A stretch of 64,000 nt of DNA from a virus: positions 96,001 through 160,000 of the IMG/VR virus record IMGVR_UViG_3300032046_005540. One strand, given 5' to 3'. Each line of letters starts with the position of its first letter. The first letter of the stretch is position 1. Shown here in pieces: positions 1-10,561 of the stretch. Made by a program: the position numbers and the translations under genes. The notes below the pieces were generated by a model. The model had not been told where the DNA came from and did not search any database. It saw only the letters and a program-made list of their open reading frames with translations.

Positions 1-180
1 CAAAAATAAACCATAACCAAGAGGAGGCTCTACAACAATTCCAATACTAACTTCTCTCCAACTATGGGCAGGAATAATTACTTCCTCCACAGAATATAAA
101 TCAAAGCAGCTATCAGATTCATAAGTCTTTGTAGGTAATTTTGCATTTGGATGAATTAATTTACATTTAACAACTATCAT
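1..180 (-). CDS. dut: dUTPase (trimeric type), N-terminal part, truncated by the window edge
   Basis: Manual translation MIVVKCKLIHPNAKLPTKTYESDSCFDLYSVEEVIIPAHSWREVSIGIVVEPPLGYGLFL matches the dUTPase N-terminus (A.LP...xxxDL motif 1, G+..+.P.GY). ATGA overlap with the upstream gene. Confidence 0.85.
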   Translation of the reverse strand, partial: MIVVKCKLIHPNAKLPTKTYESDSCFDLYSVEEVIIPAHSWREVSIGIVVEPPLGYGLFL

Positions 181-542
181 CTTCCCTCCATCAATAAATT
201 TACTATTCTAACTATTTCTTCCCAATTGTTTTCAAATCTAACTGCTCGATCATCAATATAAACATCGGCAAATACTTTGCCTTGAGAACCATCATCAACT
301 TCATCAAAAGGTATATTATTTCTTTCTAAAAAATCTTTTATTATTCTTACTTGAGTAAGTCTTTCTGCTAAATTTGGATGTAATTTCGTATTGGCTCTGC
401 AAGAAGTTATAATAATATAACATCCTATTTCTTTCAATAGTCTAATACAACGAATAGCATTTTCTTTCAAAGGACCTATATCTGGATATTCATTTTCAAC
501 TATTGTTCCATCAAAATCTATAGCAACTACAAAAGGTCTCAT
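177..542 (-). CDS. HAD-superfamily phosphatase / nucleotidase-like protein
   Basis: Motif I IDFDGT, motif II TSCR, C-terminal GKVFADVYIDD. Confidence 0.75.
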   Translation of the reverse strand: MRPFVVAIDFDGTIVENEYPDIGPLKENAIRCIRLLKEIGCYIIITSCRANTKLHPNLAERLTQVRIIKDFLERNNIPFDEVDDGSQGKVFADVYIDDRAVRFENNWEEIVRIVNLLMEGR

Positions 543-1108
543 TGGACTCCTTTCACCTTATAGCAAGCTTCTTGAATATCTCGAAATTCTTTTGTAAATC
601 TATCCATTAAAATAATAGCAAAAGATTTTACATCATATCCTAAATCAGGAAGATCTTCTAAACCAATAGCTAATACAGGACAATTTTTTCCAACTTTAAT
701 ATTTAAACCTACATGGATAAGACCTGAAACTGGAGACGAAGTAGCAATAGAAACAGAAAGTTTTTTACAATCAACAAAAATATCATCTCCTTCACGACGA
801 AGTTTATAAGATTCTGGTATTGTTAAACTTCTTAAAAAATCAATAGTTTGTGTAATAAAAAGTCTTTGCCAAACAACCATTTCTCTTAAAGAAATATCAA
901 AAATCTCAATTATGAAATGAAGCATACTCTCACTACTAATAAAATCATTCTTTAATCTATCCTCACAATCTACCAAATGTTCTTTAACTTCCGCAGGGCC
1001 TATAAAACTTACAATACTATTTCCTTTTACTCCATGTGCGTAGGCAAAGTGAGAGTGTAATTGAGAACCATCATATTTTATTTCTCCATTTAAAGATCTA
1101 AACTTCAT
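539..1108 (-). CDS. DUF366 family protein (biotin/lipoate ligase-like fold; often neighbours que genes)
   Basis: YDGSQL...AY...G.KGNSIVSFIGP, VD.ED, I.S..MLHFIIE, REGDDI...KKLSVSIAT, IHVGLNI. Confidence 0.75.
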   Translation of the reverse strand: MKFRSLNGEIKYDGSQLHSHFAYAHGVKGNSIVSFIGPAEVKEHLVDCEDRLKNDFISSESMLHFIIEIFDISLREMVVWQRLFITQTIDFLRSLTIPESYKLRREGDDIFVDCKKLSVSIATSSPVSGLIHVGLNIKVGKNCPVLAIGLEDLPDLGYDVKSFAIILMDRFTKEFRDIQEACYKVKGVQ

Positions 1109-1119
1109 AATTTTATCTC

Positions 1120-1434
1120 CTATTTTAATGTAGAAATATATTCAATAGCAAGTTTAAGTTCATCAACAATCTTCTTAGCAAACTCTACCTCAATTCCACC
1201 AACAACAGAACTATCTTCATCTTCATAAAAATTTCCTTTACCAGTTTTTACTATACTTACAAAGTTAATATAAGGCTTACCCGATCGAATATTAATTTTA
1301 GCAACATAAGTTAATCCATCTTCACCTTTAATTTGCTTTTTTTCTTCAGTAAGATTCCAACATACACCAACGGAATCACCAACCATATGCACTTCTTTTT
1401 CATTAACGAAATAAATTCTAGGTTCTATTTCCAT
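1120..1434 (-). CDS. hypothetical protein
   Basis: 104-aa ORF with AGGAG RBS, in operon context. Confidence 0.6.
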   Translation of the reverse strand: MEIEPRIYFVNEKEVHMVGDSVGVCWNLTEEKKQIKGEDGLTYVAKINIRSGKPYINFVSIVKTGKGNFYEDEDSSVVGGIEVEFAKKIVDELKLAIEYISTLK

Positions 1435-1446
1435 AACATCTCCTTT

Positions 1447-2133
1447 TTAAGATATTAAATATTCCAAAGGATCTATTAAACCATTTGCCCTAAATGCTTC
1501 TAATCTCTCAACACAAGCAGAACATTTACCACAAGCTGGTCTTAAACCTTTATAACAAGAATGAGTTAGTTTATAAGGAACACAAAGTTTTATTCCTAAA
1601 GCAACTATTTCTTTTTTAGTCATATCAATAAATGGAGTTTTTATTTCAACTTGAACTCCATGGGTAGAACCTAAACTCAAAGTCTTTTCCAAGGCATCAT
1701 AAAAATCTCTTCTGCAATCTCTATAAACCTCAAAATCTTCTTTCACTGGGGTCATAAAAATTGTTATAGGATTCAAATCTAAAGATTCTCCATATGCTGC
1801 TGCAAGAGTAGCTAACATAGTATTTCTAAAAGGAACTACTGTTTGAATTTGATCTTTCATTTCTTCTGGAACTTTCCAATCCTTATCAGTTAATGCGCTA
1901 TGGCCTATTTGAGCTAAATCAAAATTTAAAATCTTTAAGTCTCCCACTCTTTTTTCTCCATATTTATTTTGATACCTTGCCCAAATAAGCGTTGCTGAAG
2001 TTATTTCAGCAACAGAATGTTTTTGTCCATAGTTAATACTTAAAGGATAAAGCGTCCATCCTTCTTTTAACATATGAGCAAATAATGTAGTAGAATCTAA
2101 ACCACCACTTAAAAGAAATATTCCTTCCTTCAT
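1447..2133 (-). CDS. queC: 7-cyano-7-deazaguanine synthase QueC
   Basis: SGGLDS PP-loop, YGQKH, VPFRN, Y.DCR, SCY...CG.C..C.ER Zn site. Confidence 0.95.
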   Translation of the reverse strand: MKEGIFLLSGGLDSTTLFAHMLKEGWTLYPLSINYGQKHSVAEITSATLIWARYQNKYGEKRVGDLKILNFDLAQIGHSALTDKDWKVPEEMKDQIQTVVPFRNTMLATLAAAYGESLDLNPITIFMTPVKEDFEVYRDCRRDFYDALEKTLSLGSTHGVQVEIKTPFIDMTKKEIVALGIKLCVPYKLTHSCYKGLRPACGKCSACVERLEAFRANGLIDPLEYLIS

Positions 2134-2135
2134 TT

Positions 2136-2603
2136 TTAGTTCTCCTTCTCATATGGAAATTTAATCCAAACATCTTTATCTTCACTTGCAGCAAAATAAT
2201 CAGGATCAAATTTTGAATTCTTTTTATAAAATAATACAGAAGTCCGAATGTTTTTGAACCCTTTTTTTCTATATAAATCCACAACGGCTTTCATCGTTTC
2301 TCCTGAATCTACTAATTCATCTACAATCAAAATTCTGCTTTCTTTTATAACATCAGGGAAACACAAATAAGACGGAGATCCTATTTTTAATTTAGATTGT
2401 TTATTTTCTTTAGTATAAGAACTTGTAACAACAATATCTAAAGGAATATTCCAACTATGAGACATAAAAAGTGCTGGAATAATACCCCCGCGAGAAATTC
2501 CCACAACAAGATCAAACTTTTCCTGAGCTTTGTTAGATATAATATCTATAAGGCGGTCAACTAACTGAAAGTAATATTCCCAAGAAATTTCTTCTTTTTT
2601 CAC
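2136..2603 (-). CDS. type I phosphoribosyltransferase (xanthine/guanine PRTase-like)
   Basis: VGISRGG, PRPP-binding ILIVDELVDSGETM, C-terminal WIKFPYE. Confidence 0.9.
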   Translation of the reverse strand: MKKEEISWEYYFQLVDRLIDIISNKAQEKFDLVVGISRGGIIPALFMSHSWNIPLDIVVTSSYTKENKQSKLKIGSPSYLCFPDVIKESRILIVDELVDSGETMKAVVDLYRKKGFKNIRTSVLFYKKNSKFDPDYFAASEDKDVWIKFPYEKEN

Positions 2604-3274
2604 TAAACACCTCTTTTATCTTTATCCCAAATTATTTTATGCATTTGAAGACTATACCGAACGTCTAATTGATCCTTCAAAATCCATTCTGCTAATGTTT
2701 TTGGATCCATCTTTCCCCAAACAGGAGAAAATACATATTGTTCTTGTTTTATTGTTTGAGAATTATATTTTAATATAACCATTTTCGCATAGTCATAATC
2801 TTCCCTGTCCCCAATAATAAACTTTATTTCATCACACGGACGAAGATAATAAAAATTTGTCCAACACATTCCTTTTTCCATTCCAGAAAAAGGACATTTT
2901 ACATCCATACAAACAACACTAATATAAGGAATATATTTATAAATAGAAAGACTACCATTAGTTTCAAGAATAATATCTTTATCTAATTCTTTATTTATAA
3001 ACTTAACAAGATCAAAACAATTTGGAGACTGGAGAGGCTCCCCACCGGATAATAAAACTCTTTTACAATAACGATATTTACTTATTTCTGATGCTATTTT
3101 ATTGAACGTCATTATCTTTCCTTCTTTATAAGCCCATTTGCTGTCACAAAAAGAACAACGTAGATTACAGCCTGTTAACCTAACAATAACAACAGGCAAT
3201 CCTTTAGTTTTACCTTCTCCAGAAAATGTATAATATATTTCATTAACTTTTATCCTTTTTGTTCCTTCTTTCAT
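2603..3274 (-). CDS. queE: 7-carboxy-7-deazaguanine synthase QueE (radical SAM)
   Basis: EIYYTFSGEG...G.P...VRLTGCNLRCSFCDS, SGGEPL, ETNG, LQMHKIIW. Confidence 0.93.
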   Translation of the reverse strand: MKEGTKRIKVNEIYYTFSGEGKTKGLPVVIVRLTGCNLRCSFCDSKWAYKEGKIMTFNKIASEISKYRYCKRVLLSGGEPLQSPNCFDLVKFINKELDKDIILETNGSLSIYKYIPYISVVCMDVKCPFSGMEKGMCWTNFYYLRPCDEIKFIIGDREDYDYAKMVILKYNSQTIKQEQYVFSPVWGKMDPKTLAEWILKDQLDVRYSLQMHKIIWDKDKRGV

Positions 3275-3906
3275 TTAATTATTCCCTCCTCCAACCAAGT
3301 TTTAATAGGATCAAACGTTTTTCTATGAAATGGAGTAATACCATATTTTCTAATTGCTTCAATATGTTTCTTAGTTCCATATCCAACATTTGTTTTCCAA
3401 CCATACTTTTCATATTCAGGAAACTGATCAACTAAACTTTTTATATACCTATCTCTTAATACCTTAGCAATAACAGAAGCAGCCATAATAGAAGGTTCTT
3501 TTTCATCTCCTTTTATTATCCATATTTGATGTTCAAAAGGAATATTTAAAAGTTGTTTTTGATTATATAATTTACCGTCTATCAAAACAGTATCAGAAAT
3601 TGTTTTACCTGCTGTTTGTAGTTTTGGAAGAACTTCAAAAATTGCTCTTTGCATAGCTAACCTTGTTACATTAAGAATATTTTTTTCATCTATTTCTTGT
3701 ATGTTTGCAGAACCAGTTGCAAAAACAAGACCAAAATCTTTAAACTTTTGAAAAAGGTCTTCTCGTTGTTTCAAAGTTAATTTTTTAGAATCATTTAATC
3801 CATCAAAAGAAGGGTAAGATTCCCACAAAACAGCACCAGCAACTACGGGCCCTGCCAAGCACCCTCTTCCAACTTCATCACACCCAATTACAGAATTTAA
3901 TTTCAC
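3271..3906 (-). CDS. rnhB: ribonuclease HII
   Basis: GCDEVGRGCLAGPVVA, DSKKL, KGD, AASVIAKVLRD, GYGT..H, HRKTF. Likely GTG start at 3906 after GGAGG; the ORF track extends to 3972. Confidence 0.93.
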   Translation of the reverse strand: MKLNSVIGCDEVGRGCLAGPVVAGAVLWESYPSFDGLNDSKKLTLKQREDLFQKFKDFGLVFATGSANIQEIDEKNILNVTRLAMQRAIFEVLPKLQTAGKTISDTVLIDGKLYNQKQLLNIPFEHQIWIIKGDEKEPSIMAASVIAKVLRDRYIKSLVDQFPEYEKYGWKTNVGYGTKKHIEAIRKYGITPFHRKTFDPIKTWLEEGIIK

Positions 3907-3907
3907 T

Positions 3908-4231
3908 TTACTTCCTCCTAAATTTTTTAAATTCTGAAGCTCGATATCTTCCAATCTCTTTATCAAGAGCAATTTCTAATGTTTTTTCTTTCGAAATAAC
4001 TTCAACCGGAGAAGTATCTATACTATATCCATCCCACGTTGTAAGAATTTCTTTTTCTTTACACCTATCACAACACATCGCAAATTCTAATTGCAATGGT
4101 TTTTTTCCTTCCTTTCTAAACTTTTCCTCTTCTTCTTCAGTTAAAGGGCTTAAACATACTTGATCCATTTCACAAAACTTTTTACGTTTCCTACAAAACT
4201 CACAAGTTATTAAAACATCATTATAACTCAT
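3908..4231 (-). CDS. hypothetical Cys-rich (possible Zn-binding) protein
   Basis: CEFC...C...C and CCDRC motifs. Confidence 0.55.
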   Translation of the reverse strand: MSYNDVLITCEFCRKRKKFCEMDQVCLSPLTEEEEEKFRKEGKKPLQLEFAMCCDRCKEKEILTTWDGYSIDTSPVEVISKEKTLEIALDKEIGRYRASEFKKFRRK

Positions 4232-4232
4232 T

Positions 4233-5033
4233 TTAGAAATCCCAATTCTTTTTAAAATATGCTACTGCATTATGTTCATGGATGCTTTCATATGACATTA
4301 CTTTAATACTATATCCCTCAATGCCAGATATTTTATTTAAAGCAATAGCAACATCTCTTGCTACATCCTCTACAAATTTTGGATTTTTAAATGCCTTTTC
4401 CGTAACCCATTTTTCATCTGGGCGTTTTAAAACAGGATAAATATCGCAACTTCCCATTGACTCAATCAAAGAAACAACATCTTCAATCCATAAAGGTTTA
4501 CCTAAAAACTTCAATCTTGCAGTTACTATTGCTCTCTGATTATGAGCACCATATTTACTTATTGCTTTACTACAAGGGCATAAAGTAGTTATTGGAACTG
4601 AAACTTCAAGGTAAAAATCATATTTATTAGATGTTAATCGACCTACAAAAGCACAAGAATACCCTTGGATCCCATTTACTCTTTTTACTGGAGATTCTTT
4701 AGGAATAAAATATTTAAACCTAAAAACAGCATAAGCGTCCTTTGTTTTAAGTTTTCTTTTTAACTCTTCTAAAAATACTCTTAACTTTCTTGAATTTATT
4801 GTTTTATAACGATATTGCATTAAAACCTCAGAAAACCTTGACATATTAATCCCTCTAATCTCTTTCTCAAGGTCTCCATACATTGAAACAATCGCTTGAG
4901 TTGTTTGATATTGTCTCTTTTGTTTTTTAGCAACTAATATAGGAAAACTAACATCTTCAATACCTACTCTATAAAGAGGCACTCCTCGTTTATCTTTTAA
5001 CGCTTGAATATCCGGTAATTGTTCTTCAACCAT
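4233..5033 (-). CDS. folE2: GTP cyclohydrolase I, type IB (FolE2)
   Basis: LPDIQ, RVGI, RGINMSRF, TTLCPCSK.IS.YGAHNQR, LKRPDEK.VTE, NPKFVED, ESIH.HNA. Start at 5033 after AGGAG; the track gives 5102. Confidence 0.93.
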   Translation of the reverse strand: MVEEQLPDIQALKDKRGVPLYRVGIEDVSFPILVAKKQKRQYQTTQAIVSMYGDLEKEIRGINMSRFSEVLMQYRYKTINSRKLRVFLEELKRKLKTKDAYAVFRFKYFIPKESPVKRVNGIQGYSCAFVGRLTSNKYDFYLEVSVPITTLCPCSKAISKYGAHNQRAIVTARLKFLGKPLWIEDVVSLIESMGSCDIYPVLKRPDEKWVTEKAFKNPKFVEDVARDVAIALNKISGIEGYSIKVMSYESIHEHNAVAYFKKNWDF

Positions 5034-5052
5034 AGCTTCTCCTTCCAATTTT

Positions 5053-5481
5053 TTATTCTCCATATATAGCACTCGATTTAGGACCTTCAAACACTTCAAC
5101 ACTTATAAGTTTAACAGGATAAAACTCAGATTGAAAATTGTAAAACAAAAATTGTGCCATATGTTCTGCCGTAGGATTTCCTTGCATAGGATAAATTTGT
5201 TGCCCTTGATCTTTTGAAATAACATTCTGACAATGTAAAATTTCTATAAGAGGATCAGCAAAATTCAATATAAGTCCATGATCCCAATGTTGATCAATCC
5301 ATCCTTGAATTACTTTTTTTACAACAGAAAAATCAACTACCATTCCATCTTTATTAAGATCTTCACTCTCAAATGTAAAAATAGCACGCCAAGAATGGCC
5401 ATGGATACGCCCGCAAGGTCCTTCATAATTTAATAACCTGTGAGCCGCATCCCATTTAACTTCCTTAGCAATCTTAAACAT
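5053..5481 (-). CDS. queD: 6-carboxytetrahydropterin synthase QueD
   Basis: AAHRL..Y.G.C..IHGHSW, GMVVDF, WDH, NPTAE, FE. Confidence 0.93.
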   Translation of the reverse strand: MFKIAKEVKWDAAHRLLNYEGPCGRIHGHSWRAIFTFESEDLNKDGMVVDFSVVKKVIQGWIDQHWDHGLILNFADPLIEILHCQNVISKDQGQQIYPMQGNPTAEHMAQFLFYNFQSEFYPVKLISVEVFEGPKSSAIYGE

Positions 5482-8890: not shown

Positions 8891-9628
8891 TTATTCACTT
8901 TTTTTAGACTTTGGAAAGTTTACAAAAAATGGCATCGCAACATCAAAAGTAAGTCTTGGATCTTTAAAACTTTTAACTACTTCATAATAAGATTTCAAAG
9001 GCATTCCATTCCACTTTTTTTCATTCCACAACTTATTTAACTTTGTACCCTTTGCAGGCCTACAATACATTGCGTGAACTTGAATAATATTAGGAAGAGA
9101 CAAAGATTGTTCTAATGATTCTCTAAACTCCTTTATAGCAGTTTCATTATCTGTTACATAAGGTTTTGCTAATATATAAATAATATACTCAAAATTTCTA
9201 TTTTCACTAACTAACTTTTTTACATCTTCAAAATCAAAACCCTTTCCAATCTCTTTACTTCTATTAGGAAATACCGTCTCTAAACCAATACAAACTTCCA
9301 TTTCAATTTCAGGTTTTTCATTTGGAATAAATTCAGGTCTTGATTCTACTCTTAATTTTTTAACGCCATTTTCTTTTAAATACTTGATAACATCTCTCCA
9401 AGAAACTTGCATTTGTTCTAAATCAAAAAAGGATCCAGAATTAAAAATTCTAAAGTATTCAGGATACCCTCCATATGTTTCTTTACATGTTTTGAATTGG
9501 TCCCAAATATCTTCAGGAGTTGTTTCTGGATCCGTATCTTTTTTGAATCCACAGAAAATGCATCTACCCCATCTACAAGGCTTTACTCTTAAGCAAATTG
9601 TATTTTTATCCATCCAAACACATTTCAT
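8891..9628 (-). CDS. archaeosine biosynthesis radical SAM protein, RaSEA-like (TIGR01210-type)
   Basis: LRVKPCRWGRCIFCGF, IFNSGSFFD, VESRPEFI, EVCIGLET, IGKG, YILAKP correspond to RaSEA motifs (LRT.GC.W..C.MCGY, IFTSGSFLD, ESRPEF, IGLET, INKG, YLLLKP). Confidence 0.82.
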   Translation of the reverse strand: MKCVWMDKNTICLRVKPCRWGRCIFCGFKKDTDPETTPEDIWDQFKTCKETYGGYPEYFRIFNSGSFFDLEQMQVSWRDVIKYLKENGVKKLRVESRPEFIPNEKPEIEMEVCIGLETVFPNRSKEIGKGFDFEDVKKLVSENRNFEYIIYILAKPYVTDNETAIKEFRESLEQSLSLPNIIQVHAMYCRPAKGTKLNKLWNEKKWNGMPLKSYYEVVKSFKDPRLTFDVAMPFFVNFPKSKKSE

Positions 9629-9773
9629 TCATATCCTCCCTCTCTTCTAATCTCCTCAACTCAATATCTATCTCTTTAAGTTTTTTACTTTTTTTATCAA
9701 GTTCTTTTTCCAAATGAACAATTTGAAGTTCTAATTGACCTTTCTTTCTTTTCAAACAATTGTAGTCTTTCAT
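9606..9773 (-). CDS. small coiled-coil hypothetical protein (55 aa)
   Basis: Manual translation MKDYNCLKRKKGQLELQIVHLEKELDKK...; ATGA overlap with the arcS-like stop. Confidence 0.5.
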   Translation of the reverse strand: MKDYNCLKRKKGQLELQIVHLEKELDKKSKKLKEIDIELRRLEEREDMNEMCLDG

Positions 9774-10561
9774 ATTATCCCCTTTATTTTTTCAGCTTCG
9801 GTAGGAGTATCAATCCCACACAATTTAATAATTTCTAAAAATGGTTCATACCTATGAAAATTCCTATATTCGTCAAATTTATTAATTGAAAAATACTTTT
9901 TACATCTTAAATAAACTTGCCACAAATCCGGATACGAATTATTATATTTAAGAACAAACGGATGTTCCCAAAATTCTTCAGGAACTACTCCAATAGTAGT
10001 AATTACTACTTTATAATATTCGTCTAAATTTTCTATTTTCGCATATATCTCCTTATGAGTTTTTGAAGTGTTATAAGGTCTTTCAGCAGAACAAGACAAA
10101 AGTAAACATTTCTTTTTATCAGTTTTAAAACTACTCATTTGATCTAACAATTCACGAATATACAACCTATTATAAGAATGGAAACTTGATACCATTATCT
10201 TTTTATCTTCAGGTAAAATATCTTTAGTAACCCCTTTCAAATCAACTTGCATTAGAATATCAGAACAAATAGGAGTAAAAGAAGCAAACATTTCTATTAA
10301 ATCACGAAGACAACCTTTTTCTTTTGCCCTCTCTATCCAATTCAAAATTTCTTCAATAGAATAAATAGACCATAATCCATAATTAATATCTTTGTGAACA
10401 CTTTCTTTTTCAACCTCATGACCAAAATAAATCAAAAACGGAACTTGACTTAATGGTGCGTTCTTTACAAACCACTTCTCTTTCAACCCACGAGAAGCAA
10501 AAGATTTGAGTGCGGTTCCATTATAAACAAAAGGATATTTTTTAAAATCAACGGTTTTCAT
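9770..10561 (-). CDS. arcS: archaeosine synthase ArcS-like protein (TGT remnant + DUF5591, no PUA domain)
   Basis: LLLSCSAERPYNTSKTH matches ArcS LPCS..KPYS.S.SH; ITTIGVVPEE; KGCLRDLIE matches the G.LRELVE TGT remnant. Confidence 0.78.
   Translation of the reverse strand: MKTVDFKKYPFVYNGTALKSFASRGLKEKWFVKNAPLSQVPFLIYFGHEVEKESVHKDINYGLWSIYSIEEILNWIERAKEKGCLRDLIEMFASFTPICSDILMQVDLKGVTKDILPEDKKIMVSSFHSYNRLYIRELLDQMSSFKTDKKKCLLLSCSAERPYNTSKTHKEIYAKIENLDEYYKVVITTIGVVPEEFWEHPFVLKYNNSYPDLWQVYLRCKKYFSINKFDEYRNFHRYEPFLEIIKLCGIDTPTEAEKIKGII

Follow-up and report, generated by a model that had tools for sequence, protein, structure and literature searches.

The phages closest to the system analysed here are those encoding DpdA3 reported by Cui et al. 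2023 (PMC10516641). They carry FolE, QueD and QueE, with or without QueC, together with a DpdA3 protein of ~260 amino acids (aa). All guanine is replaced (100%) in phages phiST and immuto, an outcome assigned to DpdA3, and CP220 was also reported to be 100% modified; activity of DpdA3 on plasmids in Escherichia coli could not be shown (PMC10516641). By what mechanism DpdA3 phages exchange all their guanine is an unsolved question. Our subject is a phosphoribosyltransferase (PRTase) gene located between queE and queC in a DNA stretch of 64,000 nucleotides (the window), corresponding to bases 96,001–160,000 of the 168,267-bp IMG/VR virus record IMGVR_UViG_3300032046_005540 (CheckV completeness 90%), which represents a large phage that is uncultivated. 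Its genome carries a system of the DpdA3 kind, in a variant with an accessory PRTase that was not described in that work. We propose that the PRTase recycles the guanine displaced by DpdA3 to GMP and then to GTP for FolE2, a reading to which we give a probability of about 0.42. A helper role is more likely for this enzyme than that of the sole route of the modified base into DNA.

The likeness to the DpdA3 phages of Cui et al. 2023 (PMC10516641) extends to a P-loop kinase encoded beside DpdA3 and, in the case of phiST and immuto, to a homologous small PRTase. The PRTase and the kinases go unmentioned both in that study and in Hutinet et al. 2019. Unlike those phages, the virus studied here has FolE2 in place of FolE1, carries in addition ArcS2, RaSEA, a DUF366 protein and a HAD phosphatase, and encodes the base-synthesis enzymes 10 kb away from DpdA3.

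Three other groups of systems serve for comparison. The cellular enzymes E. coli Gpt, Pyrococcus horikoshii PH0095 (PDB 1vdm) and Sulfolobus solfataricus GpT-1/GpT-2 have the same size (~150 aa) and belong to the same fold family as the phage PRTase. E. coli Gpt (24% identity) and the archaeal 6-oxopurine PRTases share with it the loop binding phosphoribosyl pyrophosphate (PRPP) and an extra Asp, a Lys and a Trp, but only the phage gene is found in a deazaguanine operon, a context that the cellular homologues lack. The Z-genome set PurZ/DatZ/MazZ and the hydroxymethylcytosine pathway of T4 are pre-replicative systems that fully replace one base. There, as here, the modification genes are found together with phage genes for kinases, nucleoside diphosphate kinase (NDK) and phosphohydrolases; they differ in that the bond-forming enzyme of the present system has the fold of tRNA-guanine transglycosylases (TGT) and is not a synthase working on nucleotides, and in that no dGTP-destroying enzyme was confidently identified here. 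TubE and ToyH of the Streptomyces tubercidin and toyocamycin clusters, compared by context only, are like the phage protein purine-type PRTases encoded in a cluster leading from GTP to 7-carboxy-7-deazaguanine (CDG) or 7-cyano-7-deazaguanine (preQ0), and TubE was proven to ribosylate CDG with PRPP (PMC6112128). Unlike the phage locus, those clusters serve secondary metabolism and encode no nucleic-acid enzyme.

The PRTase operon and a DpdA3-type gene elsewhere in the genome

The PRTase gene (2136-2603; 155 aa; PF00156, 4.5e-22) lies on the minus strand, which carries every gene in the part of the window from queD to the dUTPase gene (gene calls were checked against Pfam, PHROGs and NCBIfam; the G+C content of the window is ~30%). 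In order, the run has queD (6-carboxytetrahydropterin synthase; 5053-5481; PF01242 (PTPS), 3.5e-30; phrog_2389; TIGR03367, 8e-23) and folE2 (GTP cyclohydrolase IB; 4233-5102; PF02649 (GCHY-1), 1.6e-80; NF010200, 252.7 bits for a cut-off of 215). The listed GTG start of folE2 creates a 50-nucleotide overlap with queD and the true start is therefore probably further downstream. The lineage-specific orf107 (107 aa; 3908-4231), without match in Pfam, PHROGs or NCBIfam, comes next, followed by rnhB (RNase HII; 3271-3972; PF01351, 3.4e-31), queE (the radical SAM enzyme 7-carboxy-7-deazaguanine synthase; 2603-3274; phrog_2076, 2.9e-35; TIGR04349, 1.5e-59), the PRTase gene and queC (preQ0 synthase; 1447-2133; PF06508, 4e-53; TIGR00364, 150.3 bits, which equals its cut-off). 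The junctions are tight: rnhB and queE overlap by 4 nucleotides, queE and the PRTase gene overlap by one, and two nucleotides separate the latter from queC. The same operon order recurs in metagenomic relatives (L005, L006/L007 and L102, the last one a contig binned with a metagenome-assembled genome (MAG) of Cloacimonadota), in which only orf107 and the downstream orf104 are missing and, in L005-L007, rnhB keeps its position. Since the order is kept in relatives whose PRTases are only 64-75% identical, the arrangement is a conserved synteny and not an accident. Among isolated phages, a megablast search with the locus gave no match. Family searches, junctions and synteny thus bear out the coupled run from queD to queC that had been described from the letters of the DNA by an earlier reader (hereafter the sequence-only reading).

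That reading had also noted the absence of a DpdA/TGT gene, which is correct for the window, where neither PF01702 (TGT) nor a DpdA3 profile has a match, and incorrect for the genome. PF01702 does not match anywhere in the record, but Pfam gives no match either for the published DpdA3 of immuto_2-6A. The negative Pfam result would consequently have confirmed, wrongly, that DpdA is lacking, because a DpdA3 is present and missed by Pfam. The immuto DpdA3 used as query has one match in the record, at genome positions 86431-87225 (E = 7e-11). This ORF of 264 aa is situated 8.8 kb to the left of the window and ~10 kb from queC, and matches also CGPG_00065 of phiST (3e-9) and gp056 of CP220. The genome hence combines a preQ0/CDG synthesis set with a TGT-fold protein of the DpdA3 family. 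The sequence-only reading had held that a canonical dpdA elsewhere, together with a PRTase rejecting 7-deazapurines, would tell against it; half of this was found, in the form of a DpdA3-type gene that is not a canonical dpdA.

The fold assignment relies on an AlphaFold (AF2) model built on 15 sequences, with a mean pLDDT (predicted local distance difference test) of 94, whose 50 best Foldseek matches listed are all archaeal or bacterial TGT or ArcTGT proteins (E ~1e-7 to 1e-6). A profile of the 13-member DpdA3 family has bacterial DpdA (7ui4) as best PDB match. Three Asp residues are invariant in the family and present in this protein (D52, D83, D207), while no CxCxxC...H zinc motif typical of TGTs was seen by inspection of the 13 aligned proteins. 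Twelve of the 13 are acidic, with isoelectric points of 4.7-6.1, a weak hint against DNA binding.

DpdA3 is encoded in a tight run with an NDK, a 135-aa ORF and an AAA_28 kinase (genome 86431-88473, equivalent to positions 10431-12473 of L004, the stretch to the left of the window). The AAA_28 P-loop kinase gene (L004:11240-11773) is directly upstream of DpdA3, with CP220 gp057 and the kinase of immuto as homologues of its product; the NDK gene is at L004:12054-12473. Small-molecule P-loop kinases adjoin DpdA3 in at least six lineages. The DpdA3 of CP220 (gp055-gp057) is flanked by an HD::AAA_33 fusion on one side and by the AAA_28 kinase on the other. In phiST an AAA_18 P-loop kinase-like protein, CGPG_00066, is encoded directly upstream (L020:5460-5939); other deazaguanine phages were stated to encode no homologue of it (PMC10516641), but Chryseobacterium phage MA9V-3 has a homologue of it (4e-18), namely the kinase, an AAA_18/33 protein, that adjoins its DpdA3. 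A dNMP kinase adjoins DpdA3 in D479, and immuto has an AAA_28 kinase two genes away as well as a MazG-like hydrolase. In the L008 locus DpdA3 is followed by a HAD/PNKP-type phosphatase.

Kinase and phosphatase neighbours are expected for an enzyme that yields a nucleotide or a nucleoside, and the published model of DpdA3 as DNA transglycosylase leaves its kinase neighbours unexplained. We infer from them the possibility, which we hold to be doubtful, that DpdA3 itself acts on the nucleotide pool and not on DNA, with or without a role for the PRTase. DpdA3 may then convert dGMP or deoxyguanosine and preQ0 into a modified dNMP or nucleoside and guanine, a reaction other than DNA transglycosylation. 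The P-loop kinase and NDK may raise the product to a dNTP for the polymerase while the PRTase may return guanine to GTP for FolE2. Such a scheme may achieve pre-replicative replacement of all G without ribonucleotide reductase, and a second, DpdA-free route via the PRTase may operate in jumbo phages. As to the enzymes relevant for replacement through the pool, the search of the rest of the genome suggested by the sequence-only reading yielded the kinase, NDK and a PolA DNA polymerase besides DpdA3; ribonucleotide reductase was not found (PF02867 and PF13597 have no match in the 168-kb record, which is 90% complete). The pre-replicative idea of that reading has gained support from the kinases flanking DpdA3, from the nearby NDK and from PRTase loci in which no DpdA3 was found, which are described below.

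Distribution and class of the PRTase

The genomic context of the PRTase was surveyed in its 80 nearest viral (IMG/VR) and 80 nearest cellular relatives, within a neighbourhood of 10 kb. FolE, QueD, QueE, QueC or DpdA3 is encoded in this neighbourhood in 64 of the 80 viral relatives. Deazaguanine genes were found near a single one of the 80 cellular relatives, which turned out to be a phage-like MAG contig of the same lineage. The deazaguanine gene nearest to the PRTase in the viral loci is FolE in 39, QueE in 15 and QueD in 6 cases. The link between the PRTase and the pathway is virus-specific and very strong, yet not universal. The linkage also recurs across phage lineages that differ in their polymerase (PolA, PolIII alpha) and in FolE type. 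These features render it improbable that the gene is a generic auxiliary of purine salvage that raises nucleotide supply without any specific tie to DNA modification. Phages often carry host nucleotide-metabolism genes, dUTPase and NDK are encoded nearby, and 16 of the 80 viral relatives have no deazaguanine gene within 10 kb, as this explanation would have it, but a ratio of 64 to 1 between viral and cellular relatives is far too strong for it.

Among isolated phages, the closest homologues of the PRTase belong to the Cellulophaga phiST and Flavobacterium immuto groups. PF00156 was not found in CP220, BSTP12, Youna2, MA9V-3 and D479, all of which have DpdA3. The PRTase is thus accessory and dispensable for total replacement, because these five phages, including CP220, which is reported to be fully modified, do without it.

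By its sequence the PRTase is assigned to the Gpt/XGPRT class of 6-oxopurine enzymes. In the PDB it matches best 1vdm (6.7e-18), a purine PRTase of P. horikoshii, and next the GpT enzymes of Sulfolobus and E. coli XGPRT. The PRPP loop (a hydrophobic stretch and two acidic residues, then x-x-Asp-Ser/Thr-Gly-x-Thr) aligns with that of E. coli Gpt, with D95, D99, G101 and T103 conserved, and an Asp aligned with E. coli D92 is kept. K127 and the C-terminal W146 are invariant in the alignment and match residues of E. coli Gpt; from the E. coli XGPRT structures we take the Lys to serve the 6-oxo group and the C-terminal aromatic residue to stack on the purine. The orthology test to cellular XGPRT was negative: the best NCBIfam model, NF006613 (xanthine PRTase), scores 60 bits, below its cut-off of 138, and the protein falls outside a cellular clade with 99% support. 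The PRTase tree (FastTree, 159 rows), with weak deep nodes and long branches, does not separate an affinity to jumbo-phage enzymes from one to cellular XGPRT, and the PRTases of phages with and without DpdA3 intermix in it. The PRPP loop, Asp, Lys and Trp cannot separate guanine from deazaguanine as substrate because 7-deazaguanines share the 6-oxo and 2-amino face of guanine. Whether the equivalent of D92, a PRPP-loop Asp, could serve to recognise a true purine substrate was considered; the criterion was discarded as uninformative, since the viral relatives had been gathered with a search pattern that demanded this residue.

The residues bear more directly on whether the protein could be a sensor of guanine or PRPP with a PRTase fold, or be otherwise non-catalytic (similar to PyrR/PurR), and tune FolE or the operon. 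FolE being the commonest immediate neighbour agrees with such a role, as does the lack of the flexible loop region in some relatives, for example the 131-aa protein of immuto. A search of the 80 viral loci for fusions of FolE to the PRTase gave none. The protein of this genome, however, has its PRPP-binding loop and base-binding residues intact and has no DNA- or RNA-binding extension, which makes a sensor very improbable.

Proposed guanine recycling and PRTase loci without nearby DpdA3

In the recycling scheme that we prefer, FolE2, QueD, QueE and QueC would convert GTP to the base preQ0, which ArcS2 and RaSEA may take further towards an archaeosine-type base. DpdA3 would form the new glycosidic bond and swap guanine out. 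Each modified base would free one guanine and cost one GTP, and this is what would make recycling valuable. The PRTase would couple the freed guanine to PRPP, and the resulting GMP would be rephosphorylated (NDK is phage-encoded) to GTP, the substrate of FolE2. The loop between guanine and deazaguanine would be closed in this manner, with removal of a product that might inhibit the exchange. We infer this loop, the substrate of the PRTase and the level, DNA or nucleotides, at which DpdA3 acts; gene content, fold and family assignments and co-occurrence statistics are observed. The presence in the genome of a TGT-fold enzyme expected to release guanine favours recycling, as do the optional character of the PRTase and the position of FolE, the GTP-consuming step, as its commonest neighbour. 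In this genome and in CP220, phiST, MA9V-3, D479 and immuto, dedicated kinases or phosphohydrolases are found beside DpdA3 and not beside the PRTase; this distribution agrees with a PRTase whose product, for instance GMP, can do without a special kinase. The fallback of the sequence-only reading had been that the PRTase salvages guanine set free by a DpdA whose gene lies elsewhere; this now equals or exceeds in likelihood its main idea, according to which the PRTase may convert preQ0 to a nucleotide for incorporation by the polymerase. That idea loses its premise at genome scale, where a DpdA3-family gene is present; the PRTase is optional, and the kinases accompany DpdA3. It retains an argument in a second group of loci.

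In about 50 of the 80 viral loci the PRTase occurs with FolE, QueD or QueE, and no DpdA3 lies within 10 kb. QueC is absent from them with one weak exception. A GuaC-type GMP reductase is encoded in the cluster in seven of these loci (NF003470, 537 bits, for the one of L094), in two of them directly beside the PRTase. Nineteen of the longer contigs were searched whole without a DpdA3 match, the five largest of them at a threshold as loose as E <= 10, while the same profile detected all five positive controls (~1e-90). One of these contigs is a 382-kb record (G012, locus L079) rated 100% complete. PF01702 was not found in any of five DpdA3-less contigs tested, and in 45 loci without DpdA3 within 10 kb, the same range around the PRTase encoded no homologues of kinases, MazG, HAD, HD or Nudix proteins. 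A very divergent TGT-like gene could be hidden in the DpdA3-less contigs.

The FolE/QueD/QueE/PRTase loci of jumbo-phage type comprise L094:8346-13186, L079, L058, L089, L098 and ~45 other IMG/VR loci. They may represent a transglycosylase-free pathway to 7-deazapurine nucleotides that resembles tubercidin biosynthesis. A third configuration, in which DpdA3 is mixed with the GMP reductase/PRTase pair, was observed in a metagenome contig of 24 kb (L011:880-14393). Its single cluster encodes DpdA3, a GuaC-type GMP reductase, a dCTP deaminase/dUTPase, an RNase T-like exonuclease, the PRTase, a Nudix hydrolase, QueE and QueD.

The loci of the second group weigh against recycling, which cannot explain them because no source of displaced guanine is known there, be it within 10 kb or in the 19 contigs searched whole. 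Gpt or Hpt is already present in most bacteria, moreover, and it is not evident why a phage should need a copy of its own. A third counterargument is that TubE, a PRTase in a CDG cluster, acts on the deazapurine itself (PMC6112128).

Ranking next after recycling, as a tentative but serious competitor, is a PRTase that works as TubE does and ribosylates preQ0 or CDG with PRPP. The resulting ribonucleotide would be phosphorylated and then reduced by the host ribonucleotide reductase; NDK would bring it to the dNTP, which the phage PolA would incorporate, and DpdA3 would only clear residual G or have another role. TubE gives this scheme a precedent of proven CDG specificity inside a FolE/QueD/QueE cluster (PMC6112128), and the GMP reductase/PRTase pairing in seven clusters, with direct adjacency in two, echoes TubD/TubE. 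The scheme also accommodates the specific linkage to deazaguanine genes in viruses, the ~50 loci and 19 whole contigs without DpdA3 and the intermixing in the tree of PRTases that coexist with DpdA3 and PRTases that do not. The translational coupling of the gene between queE and queC in this genome fits equally, as does the phiST PRTase gene, which adjoins those of a dNMP kinase and ribonucleotide reductase. On the other hand, DpdA3 is present here and in every examined lineage with a complete preQ0/preQ1-type pathway, which would make a second bond-forming enzyme redundant, and CP220 replaces 100% of its guanine without any PRTase (PMC10516641). The special kinases track DpdA3 and not the PRTase, and since the record has no ribonucleotide reductase match, reduction would depend on the host enzyme. 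In its fold class as in its conserved residues the protein agrees with true purine enzymes, although this is a weak test.

The gene set that recurs across these genomes (PRTase, DpdA3, kinase and NDK or pyrophosphatase) narrows the question of total replacement to the base accepted by the PRTase and to the level, DNA or nucleotides, at which DpdA3 acts. Whichever way this turns out, a missing step of a widespread anti-restriction pathway would be supplied, and enzymes for the production of 7-deazapurine nucleotides could result.

Other genes in and near the window

Beyond queC the gene run continues to the left end of the window (1-1434). It includes orf104 (104 aa; 1120-1434), a lineage-specific ORF without family match that has, like orf107, no homologue in L005-L007. 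The next gene (539-1108) codes for a DUF366 protein with a fold similar to biotin/lipoate ligases (PF04017, 3.3e-54; PDB 2ddz, 1.2e-25), whose structural neighbours in the Atlas are BPL_LplA_LipB proteins with TM (template modelling) scores of 0.64-0.70. A DUF366 gene follows queC also in L005-L007 and in L102. The protein is a possible tailoring enzyme and could adenylate a carboxylate such as CDG, leading to a new amide-linked derivative. It is followed by a small HAD-type phosphatase (177-542; NF046079 (BT0820 family), 1.1e-15), kept in L005-L007, and by the 5′ part of the dUTPase gene (1-180), which crosses the left edge of the window and spans genome positions 95758-96180.

With regard to enzymes that might remove dGTP, the genome has the HAD phosphatase and an HD-domain protein, the latter encoded farther on from DpdA3 (L004:4688-5314), while the dUTPase looks canonical. 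The dUTPase-like gene was rejected as a dGTPase candidate, as it passes the cut-off of the dut model (TIGR00576, 106 bits for a cut-off of 102.55) and shows the five motifs. Neither the HD-domain protein nor the AAA_28 kinase had an informative sequence match in the PDB.

Two genes related to archaeosine synthesis are found in the window between those for a helicase loader and DnaB, both on the minus strand. The one at 9770-10561 codes for an ArcS2-like protein that consists of the ArcS core domain only (PF17884 DUF5591, 1.3e-8; NF040592 ArcS, 2.3e-14). The other, at 8891-9628, codes for a RaSEA-like radical SAM protein (TIGR01210, 4.4e-30; 105 bits, below the cut-off of 212). ArcS and RaSEA presumably constitute in this phage the archaeal two-step archaeosine route acting on preQ0. 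The final base may be archaeosine-like because of the pair at 8891-10561.

The surroundings of DpdA3 also include RecA and PolA. The PolA gene (genome 92615-95134; L004:16615-19134) codes for a polymerase with a fused N-terminal domain of the uracil-DNA-glycosylase superfamily (PF03167, 1.1e-32), a fusion that is kept in the relatives L005-L007.

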